Shown here: in pieces, positions 1-40,908 of the stretch
Numbering within the stretch: position 1 is the first letter of the stretch
How the letters are laid out: each line of letters starts with the position of its first letter
DNA from: a virus
Lineage: Duplodnaviria; Caudoviricetes
DNA length: 41,750 bases
Reading direction: 5' to 3' (one strand)
IMG/VR virus record: IMGVR_UViG_3300043493_000077
Coordinates: 1 to 41,750 of that record
Notes under the pieces: generated by a model
The model's input: the letters and a program-made list of their open reading frames with translations, nothing else
Database searches by the model: none
Told to the model about the DNA's origin: nothing
Program-made: the position numbers and the translations under genes

Positions 1-2130
1 CCACAGCGAGCCGCTAGCCCAGGCTTCCTTGAAGGCAGCAGCAATCGCTTTGGGGGCGCTGTTCTCATCCATGCCGATAGCCCTGGCCGCATCCTTCACA
101 TCAACATTAGGATAGTCCTTGCCACCCGACACTTCATCGTTGAGCCGGCGCAGGTATTCGTCGGCCTTCTCCTTGTAATAGCCGCCTTCCGCTGCGGCCA
201 TATCCTCGGCTGTCACATCGCTGGGCGCAAAAAGGCCAGGAATGTCATGGAGAGCGCTCTCAAACTCCTTCGCCATCGCATTGGCCGCCCGCTCCATATC
301 GGCCTGGTTCTTTTTGGCTGCGGCCTCCCAGGCACTGGCCGCCTTTTTGTCTGCCGCCTCACGGTCGGCAATACCCTTCTTGGTCGCCTGTTCGTTCTCG
401 TGCGTCCATTTGGTCTGCCAGTCGGTCATGATGTCGGCGGTCGATCCGCCGCCTGGCGTCAGGAAGCCGCCGCCGCTGGTGATGCTCAGTTGTTTTAGGT
501 AATCTTCGCCCGGCAATTGCGGCCCTTGCACAGCCGTAAAGCCTTTGCCCGGCACATTGAGATAGGATTGCCCGCCGGCGATGACGCTCATCCAGTGAGC
601 CGTCTCTTGCATGGTAAGGTTGGCCTGGCTCTGGATGGCGTTGTAGGCATCCGTGGCTGCGCCCAGCGATCCGTAGCCGGCTGCCAGTGCGTCTGCCTTT
701 GTGATCACGCCACCGATGACCTCGGCATACTGGCGGGTATCCTCTTCAACCTGCTGCGTGCCGCTGGAGAGCTCGGTGTAGCGCTGGGTGATCATGTCCA
801 GGGTCATCTGCCACTGGTCGCCAATGCTGCCGGTGCGCCCCATGTCATCGGCGAGGTCGGCGAGCGCCTGCGCGTACTGCCTGCCGCCCTCCACTCCCTC
901 TTTCGTCAACTTGGTCTGCATCTCGACAGCGGCGGAATATTGGTCGAGCCTGGCCGTTTGCTTCTCCAGCTCGGCAGAGTCAAAGCCCAGGTCGTTGCCT
1001 TTCAACTCCTGGCGCTGAGACGAGATGTTGTAAGCATATTTGGTGTCCTGGCGTGTCTGTTCCTTGCTGACGTAGTTGACCATATCGGCGATGTTGCCGG
1101 CTGACTGGTTGAACCACTCCGATTGACCGGCTGCCAGTTTGAAGTCAGTCCAGGCCTTGCCCAATCGTTCAACACCGGTGGCCGCGGCCGCCGAGGAGTC
1201 GCTGATCTTGCCGAATTTTTCTTCCCAAATGTCCAGGATCGCCTCCTGATAAAGAGCCGACTCGCTGGCGCCTTCGTTGGCCGCCTTCAACTCATCCATC
1301 TTGTCCTTGAACTCACCAACGCCGATGCCGATCTGGTCAAGGCGATTGGTAGTGGTGTTAGAGATCGCCAGTTGCGCTTGGCCGACGATGTAATCGGCAT
1401 TGCTGCCCATCGCCAGCGATGCCCCGCGTGCGCCGCGCACAAAGCGTTCCAACTCCTTAGAGCTGTCGGCAAAGCCCAGCGTCTGCAACTTGGTGACCTG
1501 TGCGAGCTCGGTCGCCTGATCGACGGCGCCGCCTGTGGCTTCATCGTAGGCGCGCATCAATGCGTTGAGCTGTGCCTGTGAACCCGCCAGCGAAAGGGCG
1601 GCCACCTGTTGGCGGTTGTAGGCCGTGGCGATTTGGTTGGCCTCGGTCATAAACTGTACGCCCTGCTGGACAGCATAGCCGACACCGATACCCGCAATAC
1701 TGGTATTGAGGAGGGATTGCACCCCGCCGAAGCCAGGGATAACCTCTCCACCGAGGCGCGCCCCAAGGGCTCCCGTGGCCTGTGAAGCTCGACGCGCTTC
1801 GGCAGCTCGCCTGGTCACTTCGCTCTTGACCTCTTCGGTCGTGCGCCGCTCAACAGCGACCACGGCCTGGCTGGCCTCGTTGGCCTCACTGATTTTAGCG
1901 GCTGTCTCTGCTTGGGCGGCGGCCACGCGCTCTGAGGCGCCGGCTTTGGCCGCGGCGCTCATCTGGCTCTGCTGGGCTTGCATAGCCGCGACGACGCCTT
2001 GCCCGCTGTCGGTCGGCATCTTGATCTGCGCCAGCGCTTGCTGGTAGATCTGCTGCAACTTCTTCGCCGCTGCCTCAGCGCTGGCAACGTCGATGTCGAC
2101 GATATAAGAAAATTTTTGGCTACTGTTCAT
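1..2130 (-). CDS. Tail tape measure protein, N-terminal ~710 aa (runs off the window start)
   Basis: ATG at 2130 overlaps the HNH stop (ATGA). Frame reads MNSSQKFSYIVDIDVASAEAAAKKLQQ...AFKEAWASGSLW, with no stop in the segments I translated. Ala/Gln-rich helical composition, downstream of tail tube and chaperones. Absent from the ORF track, consistent with no in-window stop. Confidence 0.85.
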   Translation of the reverse strand, partial: MNSSQKFSYIVDIDVASAEAAAKKLQQIYQQALAQIKMPTDSGQGVVAAMQAQQSQMSAAAKAGASERVAAAQAETAAKISEANEASQAVVAVERRTTEEVKSEVTRRAAEARRASQATGALGARLGGEVIPGFGGVQSLLNTSIAGIGVGYAVQQGVQFMTEANQIATAYNRQQVAALSLAGSQAQLNALMRAYDEATGGAVDQATELAQVTKLQTLGFADSSKELERFVRGARGASLAMGSNADYIVGQAQLAISNTTTNRLDQIGIGVGEFKDKMDELKAANEGASESALYQEAILDIWEEKFGKISDSSAAAATGVERLGKAWTDFKLAAGQSEWFNQSAGNIADMVNYVSKEQTRQDTKYAYNISSQRQELKGNDLGFDSAELEKQTARLDQYSAAVEMQTKLTKEGVEGGRQYAQALADLADDMGRTGSIGDQWQMTLDMITQRYTELSSGTQQVEEDTRQYAEVIGGVITKADALAAGYGSLGAATDAYNAIQSQANLTMQETAHWMSVIAGGQSYLNVPGKGFTAVQGPQLPGEDYLKQLSITSGGGFLTPGGGSTADIMTDWQTKWTHENEQATKKGIADREAADKKAASAWEAAAKKNQADMERAANAMAKEFESALHDIPGLFAPSDVTAEDMAAAEGGYYKEKADEYLRRLNDEVSGGKDYPNVDVKDAARAIGMDENSAPKAIAAAFKEAWASGSLW

Positions 2131-2767: not shown

Positions 2768-2835
2768 AATGCCGCCCGCCGTTAGCATACGTGCGACGCA
2801 GGCGGCGGAAACGTGGTTTACTCCTGTATTATACC

Positions 2836-3653: not shown

Positions 3654-4141
3654 TTGGCGTCATCATTGTCTTGCGTGCGCCACATGCCAGGGTTGACGGC
3701 GTTGGCGGTTTCGGTCAGCGAGCCGATCATGGCAAAAGGCGCATTGGCCTCAAAACCCTCTTTGGTCTGCCACTCAGCCGGAATCTCGGCAGGCGTCCAC
3801 GCCGGCGCACTCGGGTGCCCATTGGGCGTGGTGATCTCCGGAGAGCGCATGCGCCGTTCGACTCCTTGCAGGCTCGCCATGATGCAGGCATGGTTGTGCG
3901 CTCGCAGCCACAGCACCACTGCTTGCGAGGAGACTTCGGCATCGCTGCCAGTGCGGGCAGCGTCATAGCTCTGGCCGTGCTCCTTTTCGTACCAGGCATC
4001 AAAGGCGCGCATGGCGCTCCAGTAGCGCCCCATGTCCAGGGTGGTACAGGAGCGTAGCGTGAAGCGGTAGTCCTCCACTTCGCCATCGCCATTTTGTGGA
4101 GGAGTAGTCCAAATCACCGTGCGTTTGGCGCTCAGGTTCAT
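3623..4141 (-). CDS. Tail assembly chaperone (gpG-like)
   Basis: ATG at 4141 (MNLSAKRTVIW) just after the tail tube stop; ends DAKKNGGVSANW with a slippery site. Confidence 0.75.
   Translation of the reverse strand: MNLSAKRTVIWTTPPQNGDGEVEDYRFTLRSCTTLDMGRYWSAMRAFDAWYEKEHGQSYDAARTGSDAEVSSQAVVLWLRAHNHACIMASLQGVERRMRSPEITTPNGHPSAPAWTPAEIPAEWQTKEGFEANAPFAMIGSLTETANAVNPGMWRTQDNDDAKKNGGVSANW
3647..3655 (-). promoter_or_regulatory. Programmed -1 ribosomal frameshift site (A AAA AAC)
   Basis: GCC AAA AAA AAC gives an X XXY YYZ heptamer in the correct phase at the chaperone 3' end; the -1 frame is open. Confidence 0.8.
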
Positions 4142-5201: not shown

Positions 5202-5257
5202 ACAGCCTCCTTAAATGATGCCCGCCGCCAGCACGCTTGCGCAGCGGCGGCAGATAG

Positions 5258-6589: not shown

Positions 6590-6967
6590 TTAGCTGTTCC
6601 TCTTCGGCACAGCGGGCTTGCCGGCCTGGCTATCATCAGCCTGCCCCGCGGCTGGCGTAGACAGCGAGGGGACGACAGGCGGCGATACCGTTTCGGTTGT
6701 GGCGGAAACGGCGCCGGCGGGTAGCTGGCCGCGGGTGGCAGCGTCGTCACCTTGTAGGCGCCCTTGGATGTTGCCACCCACAGGCTCCAGCTTGTCCTCA
6801 AAGCCGGCGGCTTCGGCTTCTGTCAGCTCTACCGTGTCGCCGGCTTGCAACTCTGGATTGGTGCCCCAGGTCTGCCCCTCTTTGACACGGTAGGTTTTCG
6901 TTTCTTCTTCCTTTGGCTCCGTGCTACGCGCCACGTGGCGCGGACGCCGCTGTTCTGATTGTTCCAT
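6590..6967 (-). CDS. Small capsid-adjacent hypothetical protein
   Basis: TYRVKEG...GDTVELTEAEA, a type often seen after capsid genes; low-complexity tail. Confidence 0.6.
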   Translation of the reverse strand: MEQSEQRRPRHVARSTEPKEEETKTYRVKEGQTWGTNPELQAGDTVELTEAEAAGFEDKLEPVGGNIQGRLQGDDAATRGQLPAGAVSATTETVSPPVVPSLSTPAAGQADDSQAGKPAVPKRNS

Positions 6968-7016: not shown

Positions 7017-8048
7017 TCAGGCGCCGGTCGCGTGCACTACCCCGCTTCTGGCGCCGGCGCTCCCTTTGACGATTGGCGTGGTCACGGCCAACACCTTGAA
7101 GCTGTTGAGCATCCGGTCGCCGCTGACCCACTCACGCGTGGTCGATGGGAAGTAGCCGTCCACGAAGGCGATCTGCACAACGTCCGAGGTGAGCTGCACA
7201 AGCAGGATTGTGCCGTCGGCCAGTTGCGGAATCTGTTCGTAAGCGACAACACCTTGCATACGCAGGATGCGGTCACGCGGCGTATCGCCGCTACCATCGG
7301 TGTCATAGATAAAGGCCGCCTCATTGAACTGCGTAGCCGAGGCAAAGACGCCATATGGCCCGTAGTAGCCATCAGCCTGAGCGGCGCCGATCATGCCGGC
7401 AATCGTCTTGACGGCGTTGCCGGCGGTCGCCCAGTCGCCGCCGCCGAAGCTGGTAGCGGTGCCGGTGTTGCGGTTGGGATGGGTCGTGAGCCCGTAGATG
7501 GTTTGGCCGAGGATGTTGATCGAGGTATCGCCTACGATTAGCATATCCTCAATCTTTTCGGCGACGACGCGGGCGGCCGCGGCGGCGTTGGCGACATCGA
7601 GGCCGTCACCCAACATGCGGCTGGATTGCAAGAGGCGCTCATCCAGCTCAAACTCTTTGGCCACGACCGGCACCGGCACGCCGGCAATCGTGAAGTCGGC
7701 CAGGTCTTTTTCGACCGAGGCATGGCCGCGGATGGTGGCGCTGGCGGCTGTCATCTCTCCGATTTGGTTGTACTGGGCGATGATGGTGCCGATACTGCCA
7801 AGACGACGCGTCAGCCCGCGGCTGACGAGCAGACTGGTCATGCGCAGCGGTGGCAAGGCGGCGGCGACAATCTGGCTGTCAAGCTCGGCCCATTCCGTGC
7901 TGCGTAAGGCCGAGTTGACGCGCAGGCCGCGGGCGGATGTGATCGTGACCTCGCCTGTGCGCTTGTTGACGGTGGGTCGCCCGCCGAGGATGGCCTGTTG
8001 TCCTGCACTCGAATTAAGGTCGAGCACCTGAAGATTTGAATTTGGCAT
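7017..8048 (-). CDS. Major capsid protein (HK97 fold, Linocin_M18/encapsulin-like type)
   Basis: 343 aa; LRSTEWAELDSQIV, VPVPVVAKEFELDER, IYGLTTHPNR, GYYGPY motifs; follows scaffold and decoration genes. Confidence 0.85.
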   Translation of the reverse strand: MPNSNLQVLDLNSSAGQQAILGGRPTVNKRTGEVTITSARGLRVNSALRSTEWAELDSQIVAAALPPLRMTSLLVSRGLTRRLGSIGTIIAQYNQIGEMTAASATIRGHASVEKDLADFTIAGVPVPVVAKEFELDERLLQSSRMLGDGLDVANAAAAARVVAEKIEDMLIVGDTSINILGQTIYGLTTHPNRNTGTATSFGGGDWATAGNAVKTIAGMIGAAQADGYYGPYGVFASATQFNEAAFIYDTDGSGDTPRDRILRMQGVVAYEQIPQLADGTILLVQLTSDVVQIAFVDGYFPSTTREWVSGDRMLNSFKVLAVTTPIVKGSAGARSGVVHATGA

Positions 8049-8056
8049 GATTTCTC

Positions 8057-8530
8057 CTATGCCATCCTGACGCGGATGCGGGCGTCCGAACCTGATGCGT
8101 TGTTGACGGCTTCCTCGGCATAGCCGACCAGGCTGTCAATGGCGGTGCCGGCTGCCGCTTGCAAGGCGCCGGTGCCTGCCGATTCGAGCGCCGCCCCCTT
8201 GGCGACATTGCTGCCGGTCTTGATCAGCATGTAGAGCACATCGCCCGGAACAGCGTGGACATAGGCTGCGGTCTGCCCGGCGGTATAGCTGGCATCGATG
8301 GCGGCGACGGTCGTGTCGGTGGCCCACAGATTATCCAAGGCCACTTTGTTGCCGTTGCGGTTGCCGCCGGCGGTGGCGTGAGGCTTGACGGTGTTGGTGG
8401 TGCCAAAGTCGAGCAACATGCCCGGCTTGACGGTAGCGGCCGCTTGTACCGGCGCCTCCATCGGGCGCTGCATACCGTTGTCACGGTTGTTGCTGCGCAG
8501 CACAATCGTGTGGGGTGTGGTGCTCGCCAT
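8057..8530 (-). CDS. Head decoration / capsid cement protein
   Basis: 157 aa; VKPGMLL, LESAGTGAL, VGYAEEAV...RIRVR; lies between scaffold and capsid. Confidence 0.7.
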   Translation of the reverse strand: MASTTPHTIVLRSNNRDNGMQRPMEAPVQAAATVKPGMLLDFGTTNTVKPHATAGGNRNGNKVALDNLWATDTTVAAIDASYTAGQTAAYVHAVPGDVLYMLIKTGSNVAKGAALESAGTGALQAAAGTAIDSLVGYAEEAVNNASGSDARIRVRMA

Positions 8531-8532
8531 GA

Positions 8533-9822
8533 TTAGGCCTCCTTCTTAAAAAACTCAGCCGGCCACTTCATGAGTAGCTCTTCCTCTTCGGGCGTGTTGA
8601 CGCGTAAGAATCCGGCATTGGCGCTGTAATCACGCGGCTGGTAGCTGCCATAGATGGCGCGTAGCCTGTTTATGTCGTAGCCGGCCAAATCAGCCGCTTG
8701 GTAGGCGCCGCGGCAGTTGGCGACGATGCCGGCAACGAGCTGGACGCGTTCCTCATTGGTGGACGCATTGACATTGGCGGTCAGCCCCTTGATCGCATCT
8801 TCCAGCGCGGCAAGACGCGCATCCAGGCCGCCGTCTTGTGCTACTGGCACAGGTGCTGTGGACGCCTCTGCTTGCGCGCCCAATGGCGGTGCCGGTGCCC
8901 GTCCCGGCGCGCCTTCCTCTAAACTCTCCTGGAGCACGTGCAGATCGCCCTCATCCCAGGTCGCCAACTTCTCTTGGCTAAATTTGCATTTGGCGTTGGC
9001 CACCAATGCGCCAATCAGTTCGGTCTTGTTCACAGATAAATCCTCCTCTTGAACATTTGCTTCGATTGCGATTTGCCCCTCCGGCGGCTCACAAGAGCTG
9101 ATCGGAGCGGTAACTGTGCCCTCCACATTCGTGGCTGGGCTTTGTATTTGAAGCTGGTCATTATTCATGCCACTCATGCTTGAGTGGCGTTCGATATTGA
9201 ACCAGCTCAGAAAACGTTGGAACAGTCCTAATTCGTCCATGCTTTCCTCCTGGCTGTTTACCCGTGGCGTACCGCAACCATCGGCCCAACTGCACGCGCC
9301 GATCTCATCCGGTAAAATTGCCAGATGGTCGGGGCGAATGTTGCGCGCAATGCCGCCGTACGCGTAACCGTTAAAGGTTCCCGGCGTTGCTTCCATCTCG
9401 CAGAAGTAGCCGGTTGACACTTCCAACGGCTGATTGGCGCGCAGCTTGCTGACAATCTGCACCGCCCGCGCCCCCTGGGCTCCCGCCATCATCTGCGCCT
9501 TGTCCAAGTCAATCCAGATTTCGCCCTTGAGCGCTCCGCCATCGACGGCCACATTCCAGAGATGGCCCAGCACATCATTGGCCCAGATGTCGGGCGTGTT
9601 GGCGGAGATGGGCAAGCCGTCGGCTTTGGGGTGTGCAATCGGGACGGGGCGGCCCTGCCATGAAGAGGCAAACTTGCCGAATTCCTGTGCTGAGACGAAC
9701 GTGTCGTTTAAAATGCCTTCGCGCAGGGCGACGACCGGCGAGACGAGATAGCGTCTGCCGGCGTGGGTGATCTCTTTTACCTGGCCGGTCGTGGCATTGC
9801 CGGAAAATTGCAAGGTGAGCAT
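8533..9822 (-). CDS. Prohead protease/scaffold (DUF2213-like)
   Basis: GRPVPIAHP, EVSTGY, NIRPDHLAILPDEIGACSWADGCG; ATG at 9822 with GGGAG RBS. Confidence 0.85.
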   Translation of the reverse strand: MLTLQFSGNATTGQVKEITHAGRRYLVSPVVALREGILNDTFVSAQEFGKFASSWQGRPVPIAHPKADGLPISANTPDIWANDVLGHLWNVAVDGGALKGEIWIDLDKAQMMAGAQGARAVQIVSKLRANQPLEVSTGYFCEMEATPGTFNGYAYGGIARNIRPDHLAILPDEIGACSWADGCGTPRVNSQEESMDELGLFQRFLSWFNIERHSSMSGMNNDQLQIQSPATNVEGTVTAPISSCEPPEGQIAIEANVQEEDLSVNKTELIGALVANAKCKFSQEKLATWDEGDLHVLQESLEEGAPGRAPAPPLGAQAEASTAPVPVAQDGGLDARLAALEDAIKGLTANVNASTNEERVQLVAGIVANCRGAYQAADLAGYDINRLRAIYGSYQPRDYSANAGFLRVNTPEEEELLMKWPAEFFKKEA

Positions 9823-9835
9823 AAAAACTCCCAAT

Positions 9836-9874
9836 AAAAAACGCCCTACCGCCATTGCTGGCTGATAGGGCGTC
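9836..9874 (-). terminator. Intrinsic terminator / attenuator directly before the capsid-module RBS
   Basis: GACGCCCTATCAGCCA-GCAA-TGGCGGTAGGGCGT followed by a T-run on the minus strand. Confidence 0.6.
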
Positions 9875-9967
9875 TTGCGCCTCTGTTGTATTCAATTTAC
9901 CCGCGCCCCAAGTGGCTCCCCCGATAAAGCGCATTTCTGCGCACCACTTGGGGCGGTTGGATCTATC

Positions 9968-10168
9968 TTACTCTGATTTTTTGGCAGTGTCTAGAGAGCG
10001 CAGGATTGCGGCCAAATCAAAGCGTGCCACCTGTTTCCGATCGCTGCGGCGAATCTCCAGCACCAACCCCCGCGCGTCAAGGCGAGCGCACAATTTGCCC
10101 TGCTCGTCCCTTAAATCTGTCCAGGTGGTTGAACTGTTCGTTTGCAGCTTTGCTACGCGCTCTGTCAT
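9968..10168 (-). CDS. Small Com-like putative regulator
   Basis: ATGA-coupled start at 10168; DLRDEQGKLCARLD...LEIRRSDRK resembles the Mu Com layout without the CxxC pairs. Confidence 0.45.
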   Translation of the reverse strand: MTERVAKLQTNSSTTWTDLRDEQGKLCARLDARGLVLEIRRSDRKQVARFDLAAILRSLDTAKKSE

Positions 10169-10881
10169 TTTTTTGTGCCGATCCACTCGGCCACTGTGGT
10201 CGCATCGACTTCCATGCGGACCAGACGGCACTTGCAATTGCCCCGGCATACACTATCCACACCAGGCGGAGGAAGTACCCCAAGCGGCTGCCAGCCCTGC
10301 CCATAGAAGGAGACGCAATCCTTGCAAGTTTTGCCGCCGGCCCCCAACATGCGCCGCTCAATCAGCATCATGTTGCTGGCGCTGGGCTTGACGGTCTCCC
10401 GCTCGGCGACATAGAAGTGGCTGCGGCCATGCCCGGCATACTCGTTGGCCCTGGCTTGCGCTTGCGCCATCGTGATCTTACCGCCATCGTTTCCGCCGCC
10501 GCCGACGCCAGGAGGCTTGGCGGCGAGCGCATGTGATATATCCCGCGCCGTGCCGCTAATTTGGGCATAGAGTTGGCGCAGATCTGCGCCGGCGCGCCCA
10601 TAGCCGGCTTGCGAGATGCGGTCCCAGCCGCCGCTGCCCAAGGCCGTCTGTTGCAACACCTGGCGCTTGACTTCCGTGCGGACTTGCTCTTGCCAAACAG
10701 CGACCGTGATCAGTCCCTCCATCACCGCCGTCGTCAGGTCAGTCATTTGCACTTCGGTGGCGTTCACTTGGGCGTCAAGCAGGCCGACGATGACGGCGCG
10801 GGCGACGTATAGACCCGTCACATTTGAACGATAGCGGCCCGAAGAAAATGTGTAGCCCGGTAAGGGACTAGCGTGCGTCAA
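10165..10881 (-). CDS. Head morphogenesis / minor capsid protein (SPP1 gp7-like C-terminus)
   Basis: C-terminal TCKDC...LPPPGVDSVCRGNCKCRL; start uncertain (TTG at 10881, or up to 10941). Confidence 0.7.
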   Translation of the reverse strand: MTHASPLPGYTFSSGRYRSNVTGLYVARAVIVGLLDAQVNATEVQMTDLTTAVMEGLITVAVWQEQVRTEVKRQVLQQTALGSGGWDRISQAGYGRAGADLRQLYAQISGTARDISHALAAKPPGVGGGGNDGGKITMAQAQARANEYAGHGRSHFYVAERETVKPSASNMMLIERRMLGAGGKTCKDCVSFYGQGWQPLGVLPPPGVDSVCRGNCKCRLVRMEVDATTVAEWIGTKK

Positions 10882-12642: not shown

Positions 12643-12656
12643 TGTTCCTCCAATAC

Positions 12657-15054: not shown

Positions 15055-15351
15055 TGTTTCATAGGCCACAAAGTGGTGGCCGAACACGCGGATCCCGCCC
15101 GTCTCAAACGCCAGGCAGGCGATGATCGACACCAGCATACTGGCGCTGCGGGCCGTCTTGCCCTTGACCGGGAAGAGCAGCTCGTCCAGCTCGCCGGCGT
15201 CCAGGCGGTTCATCCAGTAAGCAGAAGCAGCGGCCAATCGGGAACCCTCTGGGTGCGGCTTGGGGCCGCCCACCTCTTCCAGTCGCATGATTTCCAGCGG
15301 CACGAAGATGCCGATAAATTCCGGCAACAGCTCAATTGCGGTCGCCATCAT
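15031..15351 (-). CDS. Hypothetical protein (contains HPEGSR micro-repeat)
   Basis: MMATAIELL start preceded by GAGGA. Confidence 0.6.
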   Translation of the reverse strand: MMATAIELLPEFIGIFVPLEIMRLEEVGGPKPHPEGSRLAAASAYWMNRLDAGELDELLFPVKGKTARSASMLVSIIACLAFETGGIRVFGHHFVAYETENPPKRA

Positions 15352-16160: not shown

Positions 16161-18104
16161 TTAGCTTGCAGCGGGCGCGATAGGCGAACCCGTCAGCGCG
16201 TACGCATCGGTCGGGTTGTAGCGCCCGCTCGTATACCCAAACGTGACCATCTGGTAGTAGGCGTCACGGTTGCCGGCTCTCAGCTCAAAGTGCAAATGCG
16301 GCCCGGTACTGTTGCCGGTGTTGCCGCTTTTGCCCAGCCGCTCGCCCTGCTCAACAACTTGGCCCACCTCCACATCGACTTGCACCAGATGCGCGTAAAA
16401 CGAGTGGCTGTGGATGGACGGGTGGTAGACGCGCACATACAGGCCATATGAAGCGTCATAGCCGGTATACATCACCTCGCCGGCGCAGATTGCCTCCACC
16501 CGGGTCCCTTCCGGCACGGCGATGTCGATGCCATTGTGGCCGCGCTGCCCAAACTGGGCGTCCCCCTCGCCAAAGTGCTGGGTGATGGGCCCCACCACTG
16601 GCCACAGCAGCCCCCTGACTGTGACCGGTGGCGTTGGTGTGGGAGGAATGGGCACTGTAATGCCCTCGGATGATAGCTGCCACTCAAAAAAATAGGCGGT
16701 ATGAATCTTGTAATCCGGCTGTTCAATGCTGCCCAGGCCGCAGCCGTTGATGATGTCGCCCCGGTACTCGCCCTCAATGCGGATGCCATACGACGGCGCA
16801 ACCTCGTACATGGCGAAGTCCAAACTGTATTCACGTCCTAAGCCCTTGCTCTCCAGCCACGGATCACTCTTGCGTTCGGTCAGCTTGGTTTCGCTGCCGC
16901 TTGACCAGAACCACGTCACAGGCACGCCGGTCTTGAGCCGGCCCTGCTCATCCAGCAGCCGTACGTAGACGCTGACGCGGCCCTGGGCCTGGTCACGGTC
17001 AAACCATTTGGCGACGGTGACGAGCGGGGCAATGTCGGTCGGCATGAGGGCGTGTTGCAGAGTACAGCCGCGCACGGTCAGGCGTGGATCCCAGTCGATA
17101 GGATCCGGCTCAGGCGCCGGCGTGGGCCGTGGCGGCTCTGGGTCGGGTGGCTCAGGCGTGGGCAATGTGGGCGTGAGAGGCGCCTGATAGCCCAGGGCGA
17201 GCGCAACCCGAAAGTCGTCAATCACGCCGTTTTTACGGCAGAAGCCCCATTGGTCATAGTTCTGCCAGCGGTACAGGGCAAGGCAGTGGATGCCCTGGTG
17301 GCCCGTAGCGCCATTCCAGTCGTTGATCTCGGCATACGCCCCTTGCACCCAGCCGCTGTTGCGGTCTGCCCACGGTCCAAGCTGATCGGTCTCAGTGATG
17401 TAAACCGGCAGCGCCCGCATGATGGCCGGCACAAGCGCCAGGAAATCTTGATACGCTCTGAAGCCGTTGTGGTATGCCTGGTAGGGCGCATCCATTTTAT
17501 CTTCAGATGTGATCGATGACGGATTAGGGCCGCGGCTATAGGTATGCAATGCCAACCCGTCGGCGCCGCCGTCCGTGCTCATGCCACTCATGCTTGAGTG
17601 GCTTTTATCCATGACGATGGCCGATAGCATCTCACGCCAGTAGTCCAGACACCAGCCGGTGTCGGCGTTGTAAGGCGCAATGGCAGCGGGGATGACGTTA
17701 TGCTGTACGGAGCGGTGCTTAATCTGGAGCCGGCACTTGTTAAAACATTCGGCATAGGAAGCGGGTGTTATGGGCACGTCGGCGCAGCGTTCGGCTCGGA
17801 GATTGGGTTCGTTCCCGATCACAAAGTGCCGGCAACCGTTGGAGGCGTTAACAAAGTTGGCGGCACGCTGGGCGAACGCGTTGAAGCGGTTCGGCAGTGG
17901 GATGGTTCCTTCGCCGTGGTGGGAGTAGTTCAAGCGCACAATCGGCGTCACACCGTAGGCGGCCAGCCAACGGTAATCGACGCTGGATTGGTTGGTGGGG
18001 TCGTCGCCGATGGACTCGGAGATCACTGCCCAGCCGGTCATGCCGAAATCACGGATGAGGCCGCCCCAGTCTTGGTTGCTGTCGTGGATTCCGTAGAGGT
18101 TCAT
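16161..18104 (-). CDS. Modular endolysin: glycoside-hydrolase-like barrel, Pro-rich linker, unknown domain, M23 peptidase
   Basis: IGNEPN and YITET (clan-A GH-like); HNGIDIA and GNTGNSTGPHLHFE (M23); ATGA-coupled start at 18104 (MNLYGIHD). Confidence 0.85.
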   Translation of the reverse strand: MNLYGIHDSNQDWGGLIRDFGMTGWAVISESIGDDPTNQSSVDYRWLAAYGVTPIVRLNYSHHGEGTIPLPNRFNAFAQRAANFVNASNGCRHFVIGNEPNLRAERCADVPITPASYAECFNKCRLQIKHRSVQHNVIPAAIAPYNADTGWCLDYWREMLSAIVMDKSHSSMSGMSTDGGADGLALHTYSRGPNPSSITSEDKMDAPYQAYHNGFRAYQDFLALVPAIMRALPVYITETDQLGPWADRNSGWVQGAYAEINDWNGATGHQGIHCLALYRWQNYDQWGFCRKNGVIDDFRVALALGYQAPLTPTLPTPEPPDPEPPRPTPAPEPDPIDWDPRLTVRGCTLQHALMPTDIAPLVTVAKWFDRDQAQGRVSVYVRLLDEQGRLKTGVPVTWFWSSGSETKLTERKSDPWLESKGLGREYSLDFAMYEVAPSYGIRIEGEYRGDIINGCGLGSIEQPDYKIHTAYFFEWQLSSEGITVPIPPTPTPPVTVRGLLWPVVGPITQHFGEGDAQFGQRGHNGIDIAVPEGTRVEAICAGEVMYTGYDASYGLYVRVYHPSIHSHSFYAHLVQVDVEVGQVVEQGERLGKSGNTGNSTGPHLHFELRAGNRDAYYQMVTFGYTSGRYNPTDAYALTGSPIAPAAS

Positions 18105-18310
18105 CGGGAACCCTCTGGGTGCCGCCCGAACCGCTGCTCGGCGTGGCATTTGGGACAATTGGGTGTGGCGCAGGTGTGGAAGCGGTGCCGGTGGCGGCTG
18201 TTTAATGCATAAGGCGCGCCGCACGGCGTTTTGCCTGAGCAGGTAAGCTCGTTGTAGCGCATGTGGGGGCGTGTCTGTTTTTGGGGTGGTTCTGGCTTGG
18301 TCTGGTTCAT
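18101..18310 (-). CDS. Small Cys-rich (zinc-finger-like) protein
   Basis: C-x4-C...C-x4-CPKC; ends with the HPEGSR micro-repeat. Confidence 0.55.
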   Translation of the reverse strand: MNQTKPEPPQKQTRPHMRYNELTCSGKTPCGAPYALNSRHRHRFHTCATPNCPKCHAEQRFGRHPEGSR

Positions 18311-18828: not shown

Positions 18829-19027
18829 ATTCCTCCTTCAAATGCCGCCCTCGCACACGCACGCGTACGCGCGTACAATCGCGTAGCCAAAGTGAGCATA
18901 AGCCCAGACCGCCCGGCCGCCGCTCCGGGTCTGCCGCCCGGGAGCCCACTGGGCGCGAAACGGGACGGGATGGGGCCGCACCGGGAGCGGTGACAGGCTG
19001 CGGATGGTTATGCGATGCAAGGCGGTA

Positions 19028-19294: not shown

Positions 19295-19535
19295 ACCTCG
19301 CCGGCGGGTCAATCAGCGCCATCTGCTCTGCGCCGGCGCTCCCTACGGGACAGGCTAAGTGCGCCTTGAGCTCGTCTTTGAACTCGGTGACAATCGAGAG
19401 CAGCATATCCATTTCGATCAGCTTGGCGTTGAGCTTGATGGGGTCGCTACGGAACACATACTCCCTCATCTTGCGCTCGCTCCTGATGATGCGAACGGCC
19501 TGGACGTACTTGGCGCGCAGTTCGTTCTCGGTCAT
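19287..19535 (-). CDS. Hypothetical protein (contains ACPVGS micro-repeat)
   Basis: 82 aa, ATGA-coupled. Confidence 0.65.
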   Translation of the reverse strand: MTENELRAKYVQAVRIIRSERKMREYVFRSDPIKLNAKLIEMDMLLSIVTEFKDELKAHLACPVGSAGAEQMALIDPPARYE

Positions 19536-19729: not shown

Positions 19730-20562
19730 TTCCTCAGTTCCTGTTCTATTTTGTGAATCAGCCGGCTAATCGACGGCAGCATGTCGGTGACACTGTTTAC
19801 GGTCACCGGTGCAAGCTCACGCGCACGCTTGGCGGCTTCTTTGGCCAGCTCCAGCACCATCAGACATTCGCTCAGGCTGAGTTCGCCGGCGATTTCTTGT
19901 GGCGAGCGCTGGCTTGGTTGCGAAGCCTGTCCCGTAGGGAGCGCTATCTCATGCTCGACAGGCCCGGTCAGTTGCGGCACCGGTGGCGCGCCCAATGGCG
20001 GTGCCGGGGACCGTCCCGGCGCGAGCTGCTTGGGCCTGGGCGGCTTGTGGGCATCGATGATGGCCTTGATTTGGGCGCGTGTGGGCCGAAAGTCGAGCAT
20101 CTCCATGCGCTCAAATACCTCCCACCGCACCGTGACCGGCGTCGATGGCGCCGCCAAAAGGTAGAGCGCGCCGTCGCTCAAATGCGCGACGCGTCGCGCA
20201 TTTGCCGGGTCGCCATAGACAGTAGCGGCGTTCATCATGCCCTGAATCACACGCGGGCTTAGGTCAAATTCCTGCTGCCACCACTCGGCGAACTTGCCAT
20301 GTGGCAGAATCGCCTTGACCTCCAGCAGCAACGCGCCCAGCCGAATCGTATCCTCTGCCATGCGCCGCTGCCATTTGTGAATCTCCAGCGCTGCGTCCAT
20401 GACGGCCTGGCGCTGCTCGCCATCGATGGCACTGTAGTCGTAGCGGAGCGCGGCGTACTTCTGCAACTGATAGTAGTTCGTCTTTGGCTGCTCCTTGGCC
20501 TGGCGCTTGCGCTCCATGCGCTCGGCGGCCGTCGGCTGCGGCTTGAGTTGGTGGCGGCTCAT
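19726..20562 (-). CDS. DUF3102-like DNA-binding protein
   Basis: LGALLLEVKAILPHGKFAEW...FDLSPR..Q.MM; ALYLLAAPSTP; ATG at 20562. Confidence 0.8.
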   Translation of the reverse strand: MSRHQLKPQPTAAERMERKRQAKEQPKTNYYQLQKYAALRYDYSAIDGEQRQAVMDAALEIHKWQRRMAEDTIRLGALLLEVKAILPHGKFAEWWQQEFDLSPRVIQGMMNAATVYGDPANARRVAHLSDGALYLLAAPSTPVTVRWEVFERMEMLDFRPTRAQIKAIIDAHKPPRPKQLAPGRSPAPPLGAPPVPQLTGPVEHEIALPTGQASQPSQRSPQEIAGELSLSECLMVLELAKEAAKRARELAPVTVNSVTDMLPSISRLIHKIEQELRK

Positions 20563-21407
20563 AGCCCCTCCAAGAAGCCTGTCCCGTAGGGAAGGCTGGG
20601 CCGTGTTAGCGCGCCCGGACTGATCCAAAGCACCTCGGTTCGTTCGCGTGCGCCGTCGGCTCGGCTTGCCATAGTAACCCGCTGCCAATCCGGGTAGAGT
20701 TCGGCGTCATACAGGTCGCAGGCGTAGCCGCTGATGATGACGTGCCCATTTAGCTCATGCACGGTGGCCGCCAACTCACGGTGAGCGCCGTCGGTCATCT
20801 CATGGCTGTAAACCTTGCCGGCGCAGCGCTCGCCGCGGGTCGAATTTACATAGGGCGGGTCAACGTAGTGCAGAGCCTTTGCATCATCGTACTGGCGTAG
20901 CACATCCAACGCCGGCCGGTTCTCGATGACCACGCCACGCAAGCGCTCTACAACCGGTTCAAGCACGCGATCCATACTGGCCCAATCCATCACCGGTGTT
21001 GAGCCGCTGCGGGTCACATTGGCTCGAAAGCCGGTCTTGTAATCCTTTTGGGCACCCGTGGCAAAGGCCGCGCAGTAGCGAAAGGCGGTGCGCCGGGCTT
21101 GCTCGATAGGATCGCCGGCGAGCAAGTACGACTCCTCAAATTCTTGGCGGGCATAGGGCGTCAACGCAATCAGGCGCATCAATTCGCGCGCCTGGCTGGG
21201 ATTCCGTAGCACGCGGAACAGATTCACGATCTCGCCGTCTAAGTCGTTGATGACCTCGGCATAGCTGCGCGGTTTCCGCAACAGAACAGAAGCGCCGCCG
21301 GCGTAGACCTCGGTGTAAATCCGGTGCTCTGGGAAGTGAGAAATGATCCATGGCGCCAGGCGGAATTTTCCGCCATGGTAGCGCAGGGCTGGACGCGTAA
21401 TTGTCAT
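20559..21407 (-). CDS. DNA adenine methyltransferase (Dam / D12 class)
   Basis: LRYHGGKFRLA, EVYAGGASV, EVINDLD, YVDPPY; ATG at 21407. Confidence 0.92.
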   Translation of the reverse strand: MTITRPALRYHGGKFRLAPWIISHFPEHRIYTEVYAGGASVLLRKPRSYAEVINDLDGEIVNLFRVLRNPSQARELMRLIALTPYARQEFEESYLLAGDPIEQARRTAFRYCAAFATGAQKDYKTGFRANVTRSGSTPVMDWASMDRVLEPVVERLRGVVIENRPALDVLRQYDDAKALHYVDPPYVNSTRGERCAGKVYSHEMTDGAHRELAATVHELNGHVIISGYACDLYDAELYPDWQRVTMASRADGARERTEVLWISPGALTRPSLPYGTGFLEGL

Positions 21408-21793
21408 AGCCCCCCCAGTCCTGTCTCGTAGAGAACATTGCCCAGCCCAATCGTGCCACACGCCCACAGCCAGCCGGCCAGCTGTTCCGCCGTCGTCACG
21501 CGCAGGATGCTGAGCCTGAGTAGGCTCAGCTCGTCAGCCGGATAGACCAGGCACGGCGCGTTGATCCAGTAGTCGCAGTATTCGACAATTTGTCGCACCT
21601 CATCCGCCGTCGGCTCACGTTCATACAGCGGGTCCCGGATGTAGCAGGCATAGACGACGATGGCGTGGCGTGTGCGGCCGCCCCCTCGTGCCTTCGCACC
21701 GCGGGGCAGGCTATCGTACGACCAGACGGTCTGCGGCGTGCCGGCGGCCGTGTAGGGCTGGTAGAGGTCCCCTGCGGGACAGGCGTGGATCAT
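21404..21793 (-). CDS. Hypothetical protein (micro-repeats near both ends)
   Basis: 129 aa, ATGA-coupled. Confidence 0.6.
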   Translation of the reverse strand: MIHACPAGDLYQPYTAAGTPQTVWSYDSLPRGAKARGGGRTRHAIVVYACYIRDPLYEREPTADEVRQIVEYCDYWINAPCLVYPADELSLLRLSILRVTTAEQLAGWLWACGTIGLGNVLYETGLGGL

Positions 21794-25118: not shown

Positions 25119-25158
25119 GGCGATGTAATTGCCTGCATTGGGCAATTACATCGTGTCA

Positions 25159-25205
25159 TTGCTCTCTCACGGCAAAGACAGGGGTTCGAATCCCCTATGC
25201 GCTAC
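25159..25205 (+). other. attP core: 3' part of tRNA-Glu(CTC)
   Basis: Anticodon arm TTGCT-CTCTCAC-GGCAA, T arm AGGGG-TTCGAAT-CCCCT and acceptor 3' strand ATGCGCTA; no D arm or 5' acceptor strand; 40 bp after the int stop. Confidence 0.85.
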
Positions 25206-26506: not shown

Positions 26507-26871
26507 TGGCGACCACACACCTTTACGCCGTTGGTCGCATCCCGGGCGGGGCCGTAGATCTCCTACTGGCCCCCCGCCGCCAGCAATCCGTTTGCAGCGA
26601 CACCTATGGCTGCCACTGCTATGCTTATAGCCATGGCTATGACGACGCCAAGGACGGCTATCTGCCTGAGCCGCTGCACCACGTCAGCGCATTGTGCTGC
26701 ATCGAGCGCTACATGGCCGGTCACCGGGATGGGCTGCTGGCTGCCGAGGCCAAACGTAAGACGCCGGCGCCCGACGGTTCGCTGCAAGGCGTGATCGACT
26801 ACGGGGCGGAGCTGGTCGAGCTTGAGGATGATATGGCGGATCGGGCCTATCACGCATCCGGTAACTGGTAG
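26506..26871 (+). CDS. Hypothetical protein
   Basis: TAATG coupling with GGAGG RBS. Confidence 0.65.
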   Translation: MATTHLYAVGRIPGGAVDLLLAPRRQQSVCSDTYGCHCYAYSHGYDDAKDGYLPEPLHHVSALCCIERYMAGHRDGLLAAEAKRKTPAPDGSLQGVIDYGAELVELEDDMADRAYHASGNW

Positions 26872-26915: not shown

Positions 26916-27638
26916 ATGAAGATTTCAGAAGTTTTTCCCTCAAAGTACCTAACCGCAAGTGACCTCAACGGCAAGCCGTACACGCTCACGATCAAGACGG
27001 TGACGCTCGAGGAAATGATCACGCACGACGCCAAGAAAGTGAACAAGCCGGTCGCCTGGTTCGTCGGCGCCCAAAAGGGCTTCGTCATGAACAGCACCAA
27101 TGCCTATATCATTGCGGCGCTGTACGGCGACGACACCTCTGGCTGGCTCGGCCAGCGCATCACAATTTATCCGACCAAGGTCAAGGCGTTCGGCACCATG
27201 CAAGACTGCATCCGGGTCAAGGAAGAAATCCCCGCCCAGCCCAAGCCGGTGGCACAAGCGGCCCAGGCCGTGGCGCAATCCGACCTCGACGATGATGAGG
27301 ACGTGGCCGACTTCGAGGATATGAACGCTACCATCGACCCGGAAACTGGTGAGATCATCAGCGGCGACGTCTTGTTCGCGCCCACCGCCCGGCCCAGCAC
27401 CAAGCAGCCCGACGACGCGTCACCCGCCCAGCTCCTGCGGCTGACCAAGCTCATGGCGCAGATGTACGGCGCCGACTGGGGCCAACTTGAGCCGAAGCTG
27501 GCGCAGGACGCCTCCACGGGCAGCGTCAGCCAGTTTAGCGACTTGAAGGTTAAAGAAGCTCAGGTACTGATAGGGAAACTTGAGGCAGGGATCAAACAGG
27601 CCGCGCCCAATGGGCACCCGGGCAAAGTTCACGCATAG
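26916..27638 (+). CDS. Putative single-stranded DNA-binding / recombination protein
   Basis: FPSKYL.ASDL.G...LTIK.V...N.TNA..I...YG.DT..W.G..IT pattern common in phage early regions; acidic linker. Confidence 0.6.
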   Translation: MKISEVFPSKYLTASDLNGKPYTLTIKTVTLEEMITHDAKKVNKPVAWFVGAQKGFVMNSTNAYIIAALYGDDTSGWLGQRITIYPTKVKAFGTMQDCIRVKEEIPAQPKPVAQAAQAVAQSDLDDDEDVADFEDMNATIDPETGEIISGDVLFAPTARPSTKQPDDASPAQLLRLTKLMAQMYGADWGQLEPKLAQDASTGSVSQFSDLKVKEAQVLIGKLEAGIKQAAPNGHPGKVHA

Positions 27639-27676
27639 CAGCCACCTCCAGAAAGCGCGTAAAAGTTAACAAAGTC

Positions 27677-27709: not shown

Positions 27710-27735
27710 TAAGCACATAGATAGGACTGTACCTA

Positions 27736-31980: not shown

Positions 31981-32108
31981 CTCCCCGCCAACCTCTGCAT
32001 CGCAGGTGCTCACCAATTTTCCGCCGCCGTTTTTCCGCCGCCGCGGCGCAGCGTTGCTGGCGGCGGGCGAGATATAGCGCCGTGGCACCCAGAGGGTTCC
32101 CGGAACGC

Positions 32109-32339
32109 TTAAACGTCGGTGCGATACTTGCTGATCGTCGCCCTGCGTGCTGGCGTCAACCAGTCTTGCAACTCATTGTTAAAGGTGACGATGTTTAGCG
32201 CATCATCCCCATAAACCGGCTGCCCGCCGCGCTCGTCAAAACTGCTTGACCAGTTCGCTAGTTTCTCCATGTTGAGCGTCAGGCCCGTTAATGAGCCGCG
32301 CCCGTTTTGCAAAAAAGCATCAACTTCTTCAGGTGTCAT
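32109..32339 (-). CDS. Hypothetical protein at the end of the tail operon
   Basis: AAGGAG RBS; 76 aa. Confidence 0.65.
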   Translation of the reverse strand: MTPEEVDAFLQNGRGSLTGLTLNMEKLANWSSSFDERGGQPVYGDDALNIVTFNNELQDWLTPARRATISKYRTDV

Positions 32340-38199: not shown

Positions 38200-40908
38200 C
38201 TAGACCTCCCATTCCTGGTCGATGATGATGCCATGCAGCACCGTGTCCATCAGCTGATTGCTGATAGAATGTTGCACCTGGCGCACCAGGATCAATCTGT
38301 CGAGTTGCGTGCCGTCCTCGGCCATCAGCCATTGTACGCGGTGGATCTGGTGAGGCTCGACCGCTAGATCGCCCTGCGCCAGCGAGACGACCAGCTCATA
38401 GGGATAGCGGGCTAGATAATAGCGTTTGCGGGCGGCAAGGTCGGCGTCTGCGCTGCTGGCAAAGTAGAGCGGCCCGATCTCCTGCTCAGCGCCCAGCGAA
38501 GCTGGTGTAGATGGAAACTTGGCAACACCGCTGTCACTGCCATCTGGCAACTTCCAGTGCAATTTGACCTGCGAGACAGCCCCTCCGGCATTGCGCGAAA
38601 ATTGCACGTTGGCGGCGGAGCTTCGCGTCCAGGTTCGGAACGGTGCATAGCTGCCGACCGGCACGCGCCAGAGGTTGTCGGGCTGCAAGATCACCTTGCT
38701 ATCACGGTCGATCTTGATCATGCTGTTGCCCAGCTCGGCGGCGCTGGCAATCACGTTCCAGGCCATATCGATGGCTGTGGTGAAGCCGCTCGGCGCCACA
38801 CCGTTGCTGACGATCTGGATAGCGCTGGAGCTGATCCCGGCATTGAGCAGGATGCGCTGCATGAGCTGTTCGATGCTGCTGCCCTCGTCCAGCCACAGCG
38901 AGCTGTCAAAATAGCTCTCATCCACCAACGCCTTGACGCGGTTGATGCGCGGGCGTGAAGGGTCGGCGCTCATGCGTTTGAACTCGATCAAGATGGTTTT
39001 GACGCGTGCCTGGGCTAACGTCAACTGCATACTGCTCGTGGCATAGTCGGTAATAGGCTGGTAGAACTCATAGTCATCTTCATGTTGCTCGGCATCTGGC
39101 GTTCGTGCTTCTAGCGCCGAATAGCGCCAATTGAAGTCACGCGGGTAGTTAGTGCTGCCAGCGGGACGCTCCCAGATCAATGCTCGAATCGGCATGGCAT
39201 CCGTGACGCTAAGCCTGCCGTTTTGTGTGTGAAAGACAAAGACGGCATCGCTGGCTTTGTGGGCGACCGCCGCTGTGCCATAGGCGCCGCGCTCGCTGAC
39301 CTGGACGTTGGTCGATGTTTTGTTGATGTAGCGGATCACCTCATCACCGACCACGATATCACCTGTGCTGGCGAGCCCATCCGTCGATGGCCCGTTCTGC
39401 CCATCGATGGTGAGGAAGCTGCCGGCAGCGGGGTTCACGGCATCGATGTCATCGTGCAGGATCAGCCCCATGCCAGGCAAGGTCACGGCCAGCCAGGCCT
39501 GCTCGCCACGCGTGTTGTTGTGGATGCGGTAGCCTGGCGACTGGCGCATGCTGACTTCCCAATCATCTTTTGTATTGGTGTGGCCGTTGTCGAGCGCCTT
39601 CCAACGCATGGTTTCGTCGAACTTGGGCGCCGGCATCGCTGGCCCGACCCAGCCACCGGCAAAGCCGGCATCATCGGTGGTAGTCGATCCCCAAAAAGCG
39701 CCGCCACTGTAGCTGCCGAAGAAGTTGAAGGCCATGCCGCCACCTGCCGGCCACAGGTGATTAAAGAAGCCCGGGTTGTCTGAGCCGGATACGTCAAAAA
39801 TGTGGATAGCCTCCTGCGTCGGGTTCTCTTTGAGAAAGATGACTTCGTTCTCGGCCACGATCACGCGCTCCCCGGCATGAACTTCGAGGCTGGGCAGATC
39901 CAGGTGGACTTGATTGCCGTTTACGCTGTCCCAGGCGATGATCTCGGTGCTGTCCGTATTCTTCCAGATAAACTCAAACCACTTCGAGCCGCTGTTGATC
40001 GAGGCTGGCGGGTTGATGTAGATCTGGCTGATGCCGCTGTAATCAGCGGGATCTTCCGATGTGCCAATCAGACGGTCGCCAATCCAGATACCATCGTCCT
40101 CCTCTTGCAAAACGATGCTGGCGTCAAAGTTGGGTTTAGCGGGTGTGAAGTCACCCGTCCAGCGTTCCTTGTGCGCGGCAGCCAGCGGCACCGTCGAAGT
40201 GGCCTGGCCGGCGACCGCCAGATCAAAGTTGCCAACGCGCACGCCTTCTACCTGTGTGCGGCGCAACATCATACCCACGCTGGCAAACTTGGCCGACCAC
40301 CCGCGCGTGCTACGGGCATCATCCTGAATCGAAGCGCTGTCCAAAAAGCCGACCAGGAAATTGCTCAGTGTTCCTGTGACCGCCTGGCGGTACTGGATGA
40401 CGGCGACGTGCAGCGGCTGAAAGGCCGCTTGCGGTGCTTTGATGCCGCTGATGTCAAACTGCCAGTCGGAAGCAACCGAAAGGTCATCCAGCGAAAAGTT
40501 GATGTTGAGGTTGCCATCTGTCTCTGCCAGCAGCCACCATAAGCGAGCCGCAGCGCCAGCATTATGGATGCCGTTATGGTCGCGCGCCGGGACGGTCCCC
40601 GGCACCGCCGTGGGTTCACGCGTTAGACCTGTCAGCGTGTTCGTTGGCACTTTGTTCGTATATTCGCAATACTCCCAACTCTGCCCGCTCCCATTTGGCC
40701 CAATCCATAAACCGCCTTTGCTGGCAAAGGAGCCTGTATTGGCGAGGACAACCGAAGTCGCTCCGGAGACAAGCGTCGTGGCGACGGTGGATGCTATGTT
40801 GAGGTTGCTGGCCTCATCCTTGTCATAGCTCGGCCAATCAAAATAGTAAGGGCTGGCCGCATCATGCCAGGGCGGGCCAATGTAAATCGCCCACTGAAAA
40901 GGAGCCAC
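38200..40908 (-). CDS. Tail tip / baseplate hub-like protein (902 aa)
   Basis: Lies after the distal tail gene; GDEVIRY...ERGAYGT..AH motif; C-terminal hub-like strands; GTG start. Confidence 0.7.
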   Translation of the reverse strand: MAPFQWAIYIGPPWHDAASPYYFDWPSYDKDEASNLNIASTVATTLVSGATSVVLANTGSFASKGGLWIGPNGSGQSWEYCEYTNKVPTNTLTGLTREPTAVPGTVPARDHNGIHNAGAAARLWWLLAETDGNLNINFSLDDLSVASDWQFDISGIKAPQAAFQPLHVAVIQYRQAVTGTLSNFLVGFLDSASIQDDARSTRGWSAKFASVGMMLRRTQVEGVRVGNFDLAVAGQATSTVPLAAAHKERWTGDFTPAKPNFDASIVLQEEDDGIWIGDRLIGTSEDPADYSGISQIYINPPASINSGSKWFEFIWKNTDSTEIIAWDSVNGNQVHLDLPSLEVHAGERVIVAENEVIFLKENPTQEAIHIFDVSGSDNPGFFNHLWPAGGGMAFNFFGSYSGGAFWGSTTTDDAGFAGGWVGPAMPAPKFDETMRWKALDNGHTNTKDDWEVSMRQSPGYRIHNNTRGEQAWLAVTLPGMGLILHDDIDAVNPAAGSFLTIDGQNGPSTDGLASTGDIVVGDEVIRYINKTSTNVQVSERGAYGTAAVAHKASDAVFVFHTQNGRLSVTDAMPIRALIWERPAGSTNYPRDFNWRYSALEARTPDAEQHEDDYEFYQPITDYATSSMQLTLAQARVKTILIEFKRMSADPSRPRINRVKALVDESYFDSSLWLDEGSSIEQLMQRILLNAGISSSAIQIVSNGVAPSGFTTAIDMAWNVIASAAELGNSMIKIDRDSKVILQPDNLWRVPVGSYAPFRTWTRSSAANVQFSRNAGGAVSQVKLHWKLPDGSDSGVAKFPSTPASLGAEQEIGPLYFASSADADLAARKRYYLARYPYELVVSLAQGDLAVEPHQIHRVQWLMAEDGTQLDRLILVRQVQHSISNQLMDTVLHGIIIDQEWEV

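Follow-up and report, generated by a model that had tools for sequence, protein, structure and literature searches.

How the smallest bacterial repeats move, small dispersed repeats (SDRs) and repetitive extragenic palindromic (REP) sequences among them, is a long-open question. The SDR1-8 of Nostoc and its relatives, reportedly described by Elhai et al. in 2008, are said to be tens of bases long (about 21-27 nt for the dispersed repeats), to form hairpins with compensatory changes, to be mobile as judged by empty sites, to lie in frame within genes and within one another, and to have no known mover. We describe here five families of hairpin repeats (A to E, 18-54 bases) in a temperate tailed phage from soil, given as a complete virus record of 41,750 bases (IMG/VR record IMGVR_UViG_3300043493_000077; the whole stretch is hereafter the window). 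D, C, the short form of A and the coding copy of E have all displaced 6 bp of target DNA unrelated to them. Taken jointly with the copies themselves, their empty alleles, the replaced hexamer, the D hairpin, the nesting and the spread over phyla, this is practically certain.

The SDRs appear to be the closest known kind, but our repeats could hardly be filed under them. By description, both are small, dispersed, in-frame, nested hairpins with empty-site mobility; the lengths of A (21 nt), B (24) and C (24) fit the SDR range, those of D (18) and E (48-54) fall outside it. Compensatory changes in the stem are also common to both: at stem positions 6-16 of D, 246 of 257 sites are concordant (A-T 130, G-C 116, discordant or wobble 11), the loop varying around TCT; A has one pair that is either T-A or C-G, and E one compensatory pair in seven copies, which is weak. 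The passages on SDR5 in two papers (PMC4390886, PMC5861425) have it insert precisely into HIP1, between bases 3 and 4. The D targets, in contrast, are 26 distinct hexamers unrelated to one another.

Other systems differ more plainly. RPE-1 of Rickettsia is about 150 nt long, in a class of about 100-150 nt with one preferred reading frame, whereas the present repeats measure 18-54 nt and occur in all frames and both orientations. IS200/IS605 insertion sequences and their non-autonomous derivatives go in beside a fixed target of four or five nucleotides, none of which is lost; D resembles them in the presumed recognition of hairpins on single-stranded DNA and in making no target duplication, but its insertion costs six bases at targets without a fixed sequence, and no clear strand bias was seen in one D-rich genome (G057). 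Rickettsia palindromic elements are described as palindromic DNA in frame in unrelated proteins (PMC3733652), which is the likeness to ours, and IS200/IS605 as favouring the lagging-strand template (PMC6006769). REPs and REPINs (PMC8266576, PMC3116915, PMC3733652, PMC6006769) are short palindromic sequences that carry a 5' tail and an irregularity in the stem; they occur in many copies, some of them in frame within genes. The tails here are REP-like, but are not GTAG: D starts with CGGG and C with CGGT, and the tails of A and B are GCCTG and TCAT. REPs are mostly extragenic and often inverted doublets; in the phage 18 of the 24 copies are coding and they stand singly, no cognate Y1 gene flanked by the repeats was seen among 30 host loci examined, and a fixed 6 bp is lost. 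In bacterial hosts D often lies outside genes, but this comes from its location within other repeats; it would be a parasite of several REP families and not a REP family itself. The literature, searched mainly among openly accessible papers, contained no report of D, nor of any replacement of six bases. The six-base-replacement junction appears new among known but unexplained small repeats; the repeats themselves are real.

Hairpin inserts in the phage and their junctions

Comparison of the window with itself on both strands gave 24 insert sites, 18 of them within genes (Table 1). D counts eight free copies, a decayed one and two with C nested inside; there are four copies of short A, two of a longer A-type, two of B, four of E and a single free C. 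The 18 nt of D follow the consensus CGGGWRCCCnnnGGGYGC; short A (21 nt) is made of five variable bases and then the fixed 16 nt GCCTGYCCCGYAGGGR; B and C are 24-nt hairpins, the ends of C resembling those of D, and E is a GC-rich stem of 35-54 nt. The 36-nt “long C” is C replacing six bases of a D copy (18 - 6 + 24), a composite seen twice; D is also nested in D, in the related record L001 and in L237.

The inserts occur in both orientations and all three reading phases, therefore their conservation is at the DNA level. This had been stated in the original prediction, made from the letters of the window, and its count of over 20 copies in five families, most of them inside open genes, agrees with ours, as do the genes and peptides that it named. 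The two longer A-type copies (6639 and 21682) had been overlooked; the ~27-38 nt given to C came from its nesting in D; and the peptides HPEGSR, APNGHP and GAQGAR have to be regrouped, since all belong to one family (D). A location of E within genes is correct for the copy at 10483, the three others being intergenic, and the D at 18105, formerly placed inside the endolysin, in fact precedes its likely start. Many copies had been seen at termini or in low-complexity linkers; about seven coding copies lie within apparently folded domains, not linkers or ends. It is true that no copy lies in the capsid, portal, terminase, integrase or MTase-Mrr (methyltransferase) genes, a weak point (~0.02 by length alone, the genes being picked post hoc).

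Synonymous-codon shuffles that preserve every protein served as null; the patterns were drawn from the window, so that the comparison gives no unbiased p-values. In 400 shuffles the mean count of D was 0.12 (maximum 2) against 8 seen, and the other families gave 0.04 against 4 (A), 0 against 2 (B), 0 against 3 (C) and 0.03 against 3 (E). Dispersed 17-mer pairs numbered 12, against 0.29 (maximum 3) in 100 shuffles. Such shuffles, which had been proposed as a check, thus yield almost no repeats. Contigs of two runs (X1 and X2), either of which may be the source of the window, match positions 8000-27900 with zero differences at the inserts; no polymorphism within the phage population was seen in these contigs over that interval.

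The inserts were then compared with related phage DNA: L001 (80-90% identical to the window over the structural genes), L169/G153, the complete 54-kb G152, L174, L194 and a contig in run X3. An alignable empty allele was found at 14 of the 24 sites, with gaps at the repeats; at the other ten the region is missing or too divergent. Reciprocally, L001 has three E copies and one D copy at positions that are empty in the window, and G152 has A at two places of a gene in which the window has it at a third. The elements have therefore moved independently in these phage lineages, as expected of the non-autonomous micro-insertions that had been proposed.

For four kinds the net gain is six bases short of the element: D (18 nt) adds 12, C (24) adds 18, short A (21) adds 15 and the coding E (54) adds 48. 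This was counted on empty alleles at six window D sites (+12), for C (+18), at two short A sites (+15) and for E (+48). In the six best-aligned comparisons the flanks match at 19-24 of 24 positions, but no more than 1-4 of the 6 target letters have a counterpart at the ends of the element; six letters are therefore replaced, not kept. At the A of 19340 the X3 allele has six unrelated letters for the 21 and one other difference in the rest of 19287-19460 (174 positions). The site of E at 10483 has empty alleles in L169, in G152 and in a relative present at low depth in run X1 as well, and for C at 40584 the protein of G152 is 89% identical and L174 also shows an 18-nt gap.

Families with a length of 3n would survive in genes because their length minus six is also a multiple of three. 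The six-base rule holds as well in non-coding host repeats (see below), so that frame preservation is a property of the unit: the frame is kept mainly by its design (length 3n, exactly 6 bp removed) and not only by selection. Filtering for frame, as first proposed, is thus not the sole cause.

Beside the place of the window D at 18939, opposite 18957-18961, the contig of run X3 has its own longer A-type hairpin (~26 nt, net +24).

Table 1. Positions of the inserts and of the probable attachment site (attP) in the window, with the comparison used for each
Feature	Position	Strand	Comparison
D (18 nt), tape measure gene	1758..1775	-	L001 empty, flanks 19/24 + 21/24, spacer 6; net +12
E hairpin, intergenic	2773..2811	+	self-comparison; no empty allele
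D, tail chaperone gene	3812..3829	+	L001 and G152 empty, spacer 6; 6 bp replaced
E hairpin, intergenic	5220..5254	+	self-comparison; no empty allele
Long A-type hairpin (33 nt), gene 6590-6967	6639..6671	+	L001 and L169 empty, spacer 0, net +33
C nested in D (36 nt), protease-scaffold linker	8876..8911	-	36/38 identical to 19988 copy; relatives too divergent for junction
B hairpin (24 nt), protease-scaffold linker	9165..9188	+	identical to 17579 copy; within longer stretch missing from L001/L002
D inside protease domain, net +12	9468..9485	-	4-residue gap in L001 and L002; under strict flank cut-off
Decayed D, intergenic	9903..9926	-	L001: second D nested at its end, and adjoining E
E (54 nt), head morphogenesis gene, net +48	10483..10536	-	L001 flanks 24/24 + 24/24, spacer 6
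D, small gene 15031-15420, 6 bp replaced	15239..15256	+	G152 empty, flanks 20/24 + 21/24
B, endolysin, net +33, ends not settled	17579..17602	+	L194 (69% identical relative)
D just 5' of likely endolysin ATG, end of small upstream frame; net +12	18105..18122	+	G152 empty (~70% identity)
D, no clear gene	18939..18956	+	run X3 relative: 6 other letters
Short A, gene 19287-19535, 6 bp replaced, net +15	19340..19360	-	run X3 contig
Short A, DUF3102 linker	19920..19940	+	self-comparison; no alignable empty allele
C nested in D (36 nt), DUF3102 linker, net about +30	19988..20023	-	G152 without insert (low flank identity)
Short A, C-terminus of Dam-like methyltransferase	20572..20592	+	self-comparison; no relative with the gene
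Long A-type hairpin (30 nt), gene 21404-21793	21682..21711	-	G152 empty, flanks 21/24 + 24/24, net +30; X3 30 gaps
Short A variant, start of gene 21404-21793, net +15	21769..21789	-	absent in G152 gene start (by eye)
Probable attP: 3' part of tRNA-Glu(CTC)	25135..25205	+	Rfam tRNA match
Doubtful partial E, gene 26506-26871	26570..26600	+	self-comparison; excluded from the 24
D, C-terminus of gene for SSB-like (single-stranded DNA-binding) protein	27603..27620	-	self-comparison; no alignable empty allele
E hairpin, intergenic, adjoins D	32030..32078	-	self-comparison
D, intergenic	32085..32102	-	self-comparison
C (24 nt), tail hub gene, 6 bp replaced, net +18	40584..40607	-	G152 empty, flanks 21/24 + 20/24, spacer 6

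The families outside the window

The exact 18-mer of D was found in 116 stretches of GTDB genomes; the 80 listed are mostly from Caldilineales and other Chloroflexota, then from Acidobacteriaceae, with two from Planctomycetaceae. A degenerate D pattern matches 85 of the 151 Caldilineales genomes, some single matches being native coding sequence, and 21 of the 151 are D-rich with 12-263 copies (63 in G132), whereas the reversed control gives 0-5. Outside this order, five genomes (Terracidiphilus (2), Thermomicrobiales, Herpetosiphonaceae, Planctomycetaceae) hold 4-121. D is thus present in Chloroflexota, Acidobacteriota and Planctomycetota.

The six-base rule is seen for D in these hosts too, where most copies lie within unrelated repeats of REP type, either in their loop or in their 3' arm. 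Among 225 distinct flank pairs, which come from about 13 unrelated repeat families and are not independent, 36 are found with an empty spacer of six letters, any other length being found at most 7 times. The cleanest test comes from an Rhs cassette array of G106, in which five sites carry D, and all 29 distinct empty paralogous places hold six letters, one of them with 16 of 16 matches on both flanks. The array (L706-L707, G106:C1:5632001-5670000) has 15 D in ~23 kb, filled and empty cassettes being adjacent; a cluster of ten D in G106 proved to be an Rhs array. Empty alleles for 29 D sites of G106 were not found in the stretches of that genome examined. The 26 distinct D targets have nothing in common except that 17-18 end in C; the four targets of short A end in G (by eye).

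In Acidobacteriaceae an identical D lies at one base of the phosphomannomutase gene in four orthologues that are 77-86% identical, and the site is empty in a 94% identical relative and in 29 of 29 other loci of the genus (30 of the 83 matches were examined). This would be repeated insertion at one site, or transfer without flanks. The phosphoglycerate mutase of two Terracidiphilus-like genomes (L020:1679-3382 and L104) is a second such case, with D at the same place in diverged flanks. D variants occur at the same position of diverged copies of an ISAs1-like transposase in several Caldilineales (L122, L129, L131) and of another transposase-like frame (L123, L124, L126, L128). A decayed ISAs1 (L135) has two or more D copies, and two inverted D copies 657 bases apart, which might have bounded an autonomous element, are instead insertions into a decayed ISAs1. 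Three tandem D with a 27-base period lie inside a heptamer-type repeat (L080, G087:C1219), apparently a filled unit that was later amplified.

The other families are much rarer. A is found as one exact copy in each of 2 of the 151 Caldilineales genomes, as six near copies in G106, and in 14 IMG/VR stretches, including phages that share no genes with the window; the long A pattern is at control level in the 151 genomes. C is at background and E at 0 in the same 151. Exact C and B are found in IMG/VR in the window only; the 121 loci examined of about 550 matching a loose C pattern include none within two letters of the C core, and E is found besides the window in the L001 record only. The repeats had been expected to be counted in Chloroflexota and to fingerprint the host: this is the case of D, which is abundant in Caldilineales and tracks host lineage, but A is rare and C and E are absent. 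The distribution of A, C and E suggests that the real host is unsampled or that these families live mainly in phages.

A proposed mechanism and its rivals

We consider the repeats, with a probability of about 0.6, as protein-free mobile hairpins put in place on single-stranded DNA by a host enzyme acting in trans, most likely of HUH type (Y1, like the REP-associated RAYT transposases). The enzyme would recognise the folded hairpin with its short unpaired 5' tail, cut the target strand at two points six bases apart, and join the hairpin into the cut target; replication would fix the insertion, and copy number in hosts would be further raised by riding on REP-type repeats, insertion sequences and Rhs cassettes. 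Two fixed cut positions are suggested because the loss of six is independent of element length and of target sequence; elements of 18, 21, 24 and 54 nt would all remove six because the spacing is set by the enzyme. A trans-acting host enzyme with a fixed 6-nt cut spacing is on these grounds rather probable. Its attribution to the HUH type is tentative, and is made because HUH enzymes read substrates of this sort, hairpins with a short tail and, at the foot of the stem, a conserved mismatch; TnpA-REP acts on single-stranded imperfect hairpins with a short 5' motif (PMC8266576).

Pfam searches of 45 open reading frames of the window, and PHROGs, gave no recognisable transposase or reverse transcriptase, as the original prediction had noted, nor did Pfam on 38 frames of G152. 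Y1 genes are found in 16 of the 21 D-rich Caldilineales genomes and in 58 of the 130 others (Fisher p 0.009, uncorrected for kinship and genome size). Neither a RAYT gene flanked by the elements nor a link with reverse transcriptase, which had been proposed as a check, was found; near 30 Y1 loci D occurs only singly or nested in other repeats. No gene family recurs within 700 bases of D. Insertion during lysogeny, and peptides that are useful rather than tolerated, found no support.

Several results weigh against this mechanism. Some concern the junction: at the two long A-type copies (33 and 30 nt) the insertion looks clean, the ends of B are unsettled (net +33 at 69% identity), the net lengths of intergenic E in L001 include +44 and others that are not 3n, and D at 18939 has 12 letters in the 75% identical G152 allele versus six in X3, so that the six-base rule is not universal. 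Others concern the enzyme. D lacks the GTAG motif, the end-sequences differ between families, which is hard for one sequence-specific enzyme, and the literature examined on Y1 and REP describes no 6-bp target loss. No free D flanks Y1 at the 30 loci examined of 248 Y1 matches, and five D-rich genomes (G024, G091, G118, G134, G136), which may be incomplete, have no Y1 match. No replichore strand bias of D was found in G057 (25 of 43, p 0.36, origin placed at dnaA; the GC skew is too weak to confirm this origin and the copies ride on another repeat), nor, on visual inspection, among the first 100 of the 146 copies in G106. Finally, C and E are missing from the 151 Caldilineales genomes.

The main rival, itself unlikely, is a staggered break with a 6-base offset whose overhangs are lost and at which repair or target-primed synthesis captures a short hairpin oligonucleotide, either a processed DNA flap or cDNA made from a small RNA. 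Such a route would be open to all the hairpin families, related or not, and empty phage targets fold slightly better than background (-11.3 vs -8.8 kcal/mol for 8 sites, one of nine not being locatable; p ~0.03, a weak difference not corrected for GC). A staggered cut gives a fixed target loss, but end-joining usually gives ragged junctions, whereas those observed are exact. Reverse transcriptase (RVT_1) has no match in three of five D-rich genomes examined, G132, the closest host proxy, being one of the three. The presence of small stand-alone GIY-YIG genes does not follow that of D, with a single match each in G132, G106, G129, G136, G057 and G114, those with a listed frame being UvrC-sized or a contig-end piece. 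No master copy or template was seen beside ~250 D loci.

It is improbable, though favoured by the failure to find a mover, that there is no dedicated one, and that accidents of replication, template switches to a hairpin donor resuming six bases on, were spread later by recombination with their carriers (repeats, insertion sequences, Rhs cassettes and phage modules). About 22 of 30 D copies examined in G132 lie in multi-copy repeats, 29 of 30 loci in G057 lie in one repeat family, and filled and empty Rhs cassettes coexist. But template switching needs homology and gives variable lengths, while 26 distinct targets, unrelated beyond a final C in 17-18, lose exactly six; and the four phosphomannomutase copies have different flanks up to the element, which shows that no flank was co-converted.

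A mover encoded by this phage lineage, for instance an HNH nuclease or the SSB-like protein, from which hosts would receive D, seems very improbable. The density of D in the window (8 per 41.75 kb, ~190 per Mb) is five times that of the densest host (~39 per Mb), E is found only in the window and L001, and C only in the window. However, a host Rhs array is equally dense, the true host species may simply be unsampled, and A occurs in phages without genes in common with the window; a phage gene is less likely as mover because the A-bearing G154 and G155 share only a methyltransferase piece with it. Chance, peptide-level convergence or assembly artefact is already refuted for the window copies by the codon shuffles, both orientations and all frames, the contigs of two runs, the empty alleles, the compensatory changes and a D peptide in an NCBI protein that is four residues longer than its cluster, even if some low-copy host D matches are native coding sequence (an aminotransferase motif, L138-L150) and many of the 76 viral D matches may be chance.

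Whatever the mover, the exact and sequence-independent 18-, 21-, 24- or 54-for-6 junction constrains the mechanism strongly, and rules out duplication-forming transposition and simple slippage. An enzyme that exchanges a folded hairpin of any stem length for six single-stranded target bases, in several bacterial phyla and in their phages, a natural editor of programmable length writing 4-16 residues and able to erase a stop codon, might possibly represent an undescribed mode of DNA mobility, a suggestion we make with reserve. Because an element can delete a stop codon while staying in frame, the junction gives a selectable assay. The repeats steadily supply structural proteins of phages, and housekeeping enzymes, with short inserted peptides, D is a marker tying an uncultured phage to a host order, and the enzyme, if found, could serve as a scar-defined insertion tool.

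The phage and its other features

The phage encodes portal, capsid, terminase, tail and endolysin proteins, an O-like replication protein, a tyrosine integrase, two methyltransferases and four HNH genes. The only Rfam match in the window is the tRNA remnant of the probable attP; 46 of 47 letters within 25135-25200 are those of tRNA-Glu(CTC) of G132, one of the 151 Caldilineales genomes. Because of this match and of a prophage with a 51% identical portal in another Caldilineales genome, the host is likely a Caldilineales bacterium. The relative G152 has two terminase modules, two endolysin modules and a cut-short protease gene.

The large terminase is broken into two frames at 13557-13558. The 41.8-kb contig of run X1 has seven extra letters and one differing letter there and the contigs of run X2 end at this point, therefore the two frames probably result from faulty assembly of the window.

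Positions 29501-29520, in the MTase-Mrr gene, and 32130-32149, where a small gene lies on the other strand, share an exact 20-nt repeat that forms no hairpin. Perfect inverted repeats with 10-14-bp stems lie at 13304-13337, 20179-20204, 25121-25153 and 25618-25637; such repeats number 5 in the window versus 0-4 (mostly 0-1) in 20 triplet shuffles. Two are inside the terminase and DUF3102 coding sequences, and no relative aligns across these two. Four to five iteron-like repeats of 22-25 nt and an inverted pair, at 23110-23245 within the O-like replication gene, mark a probable replication origin.

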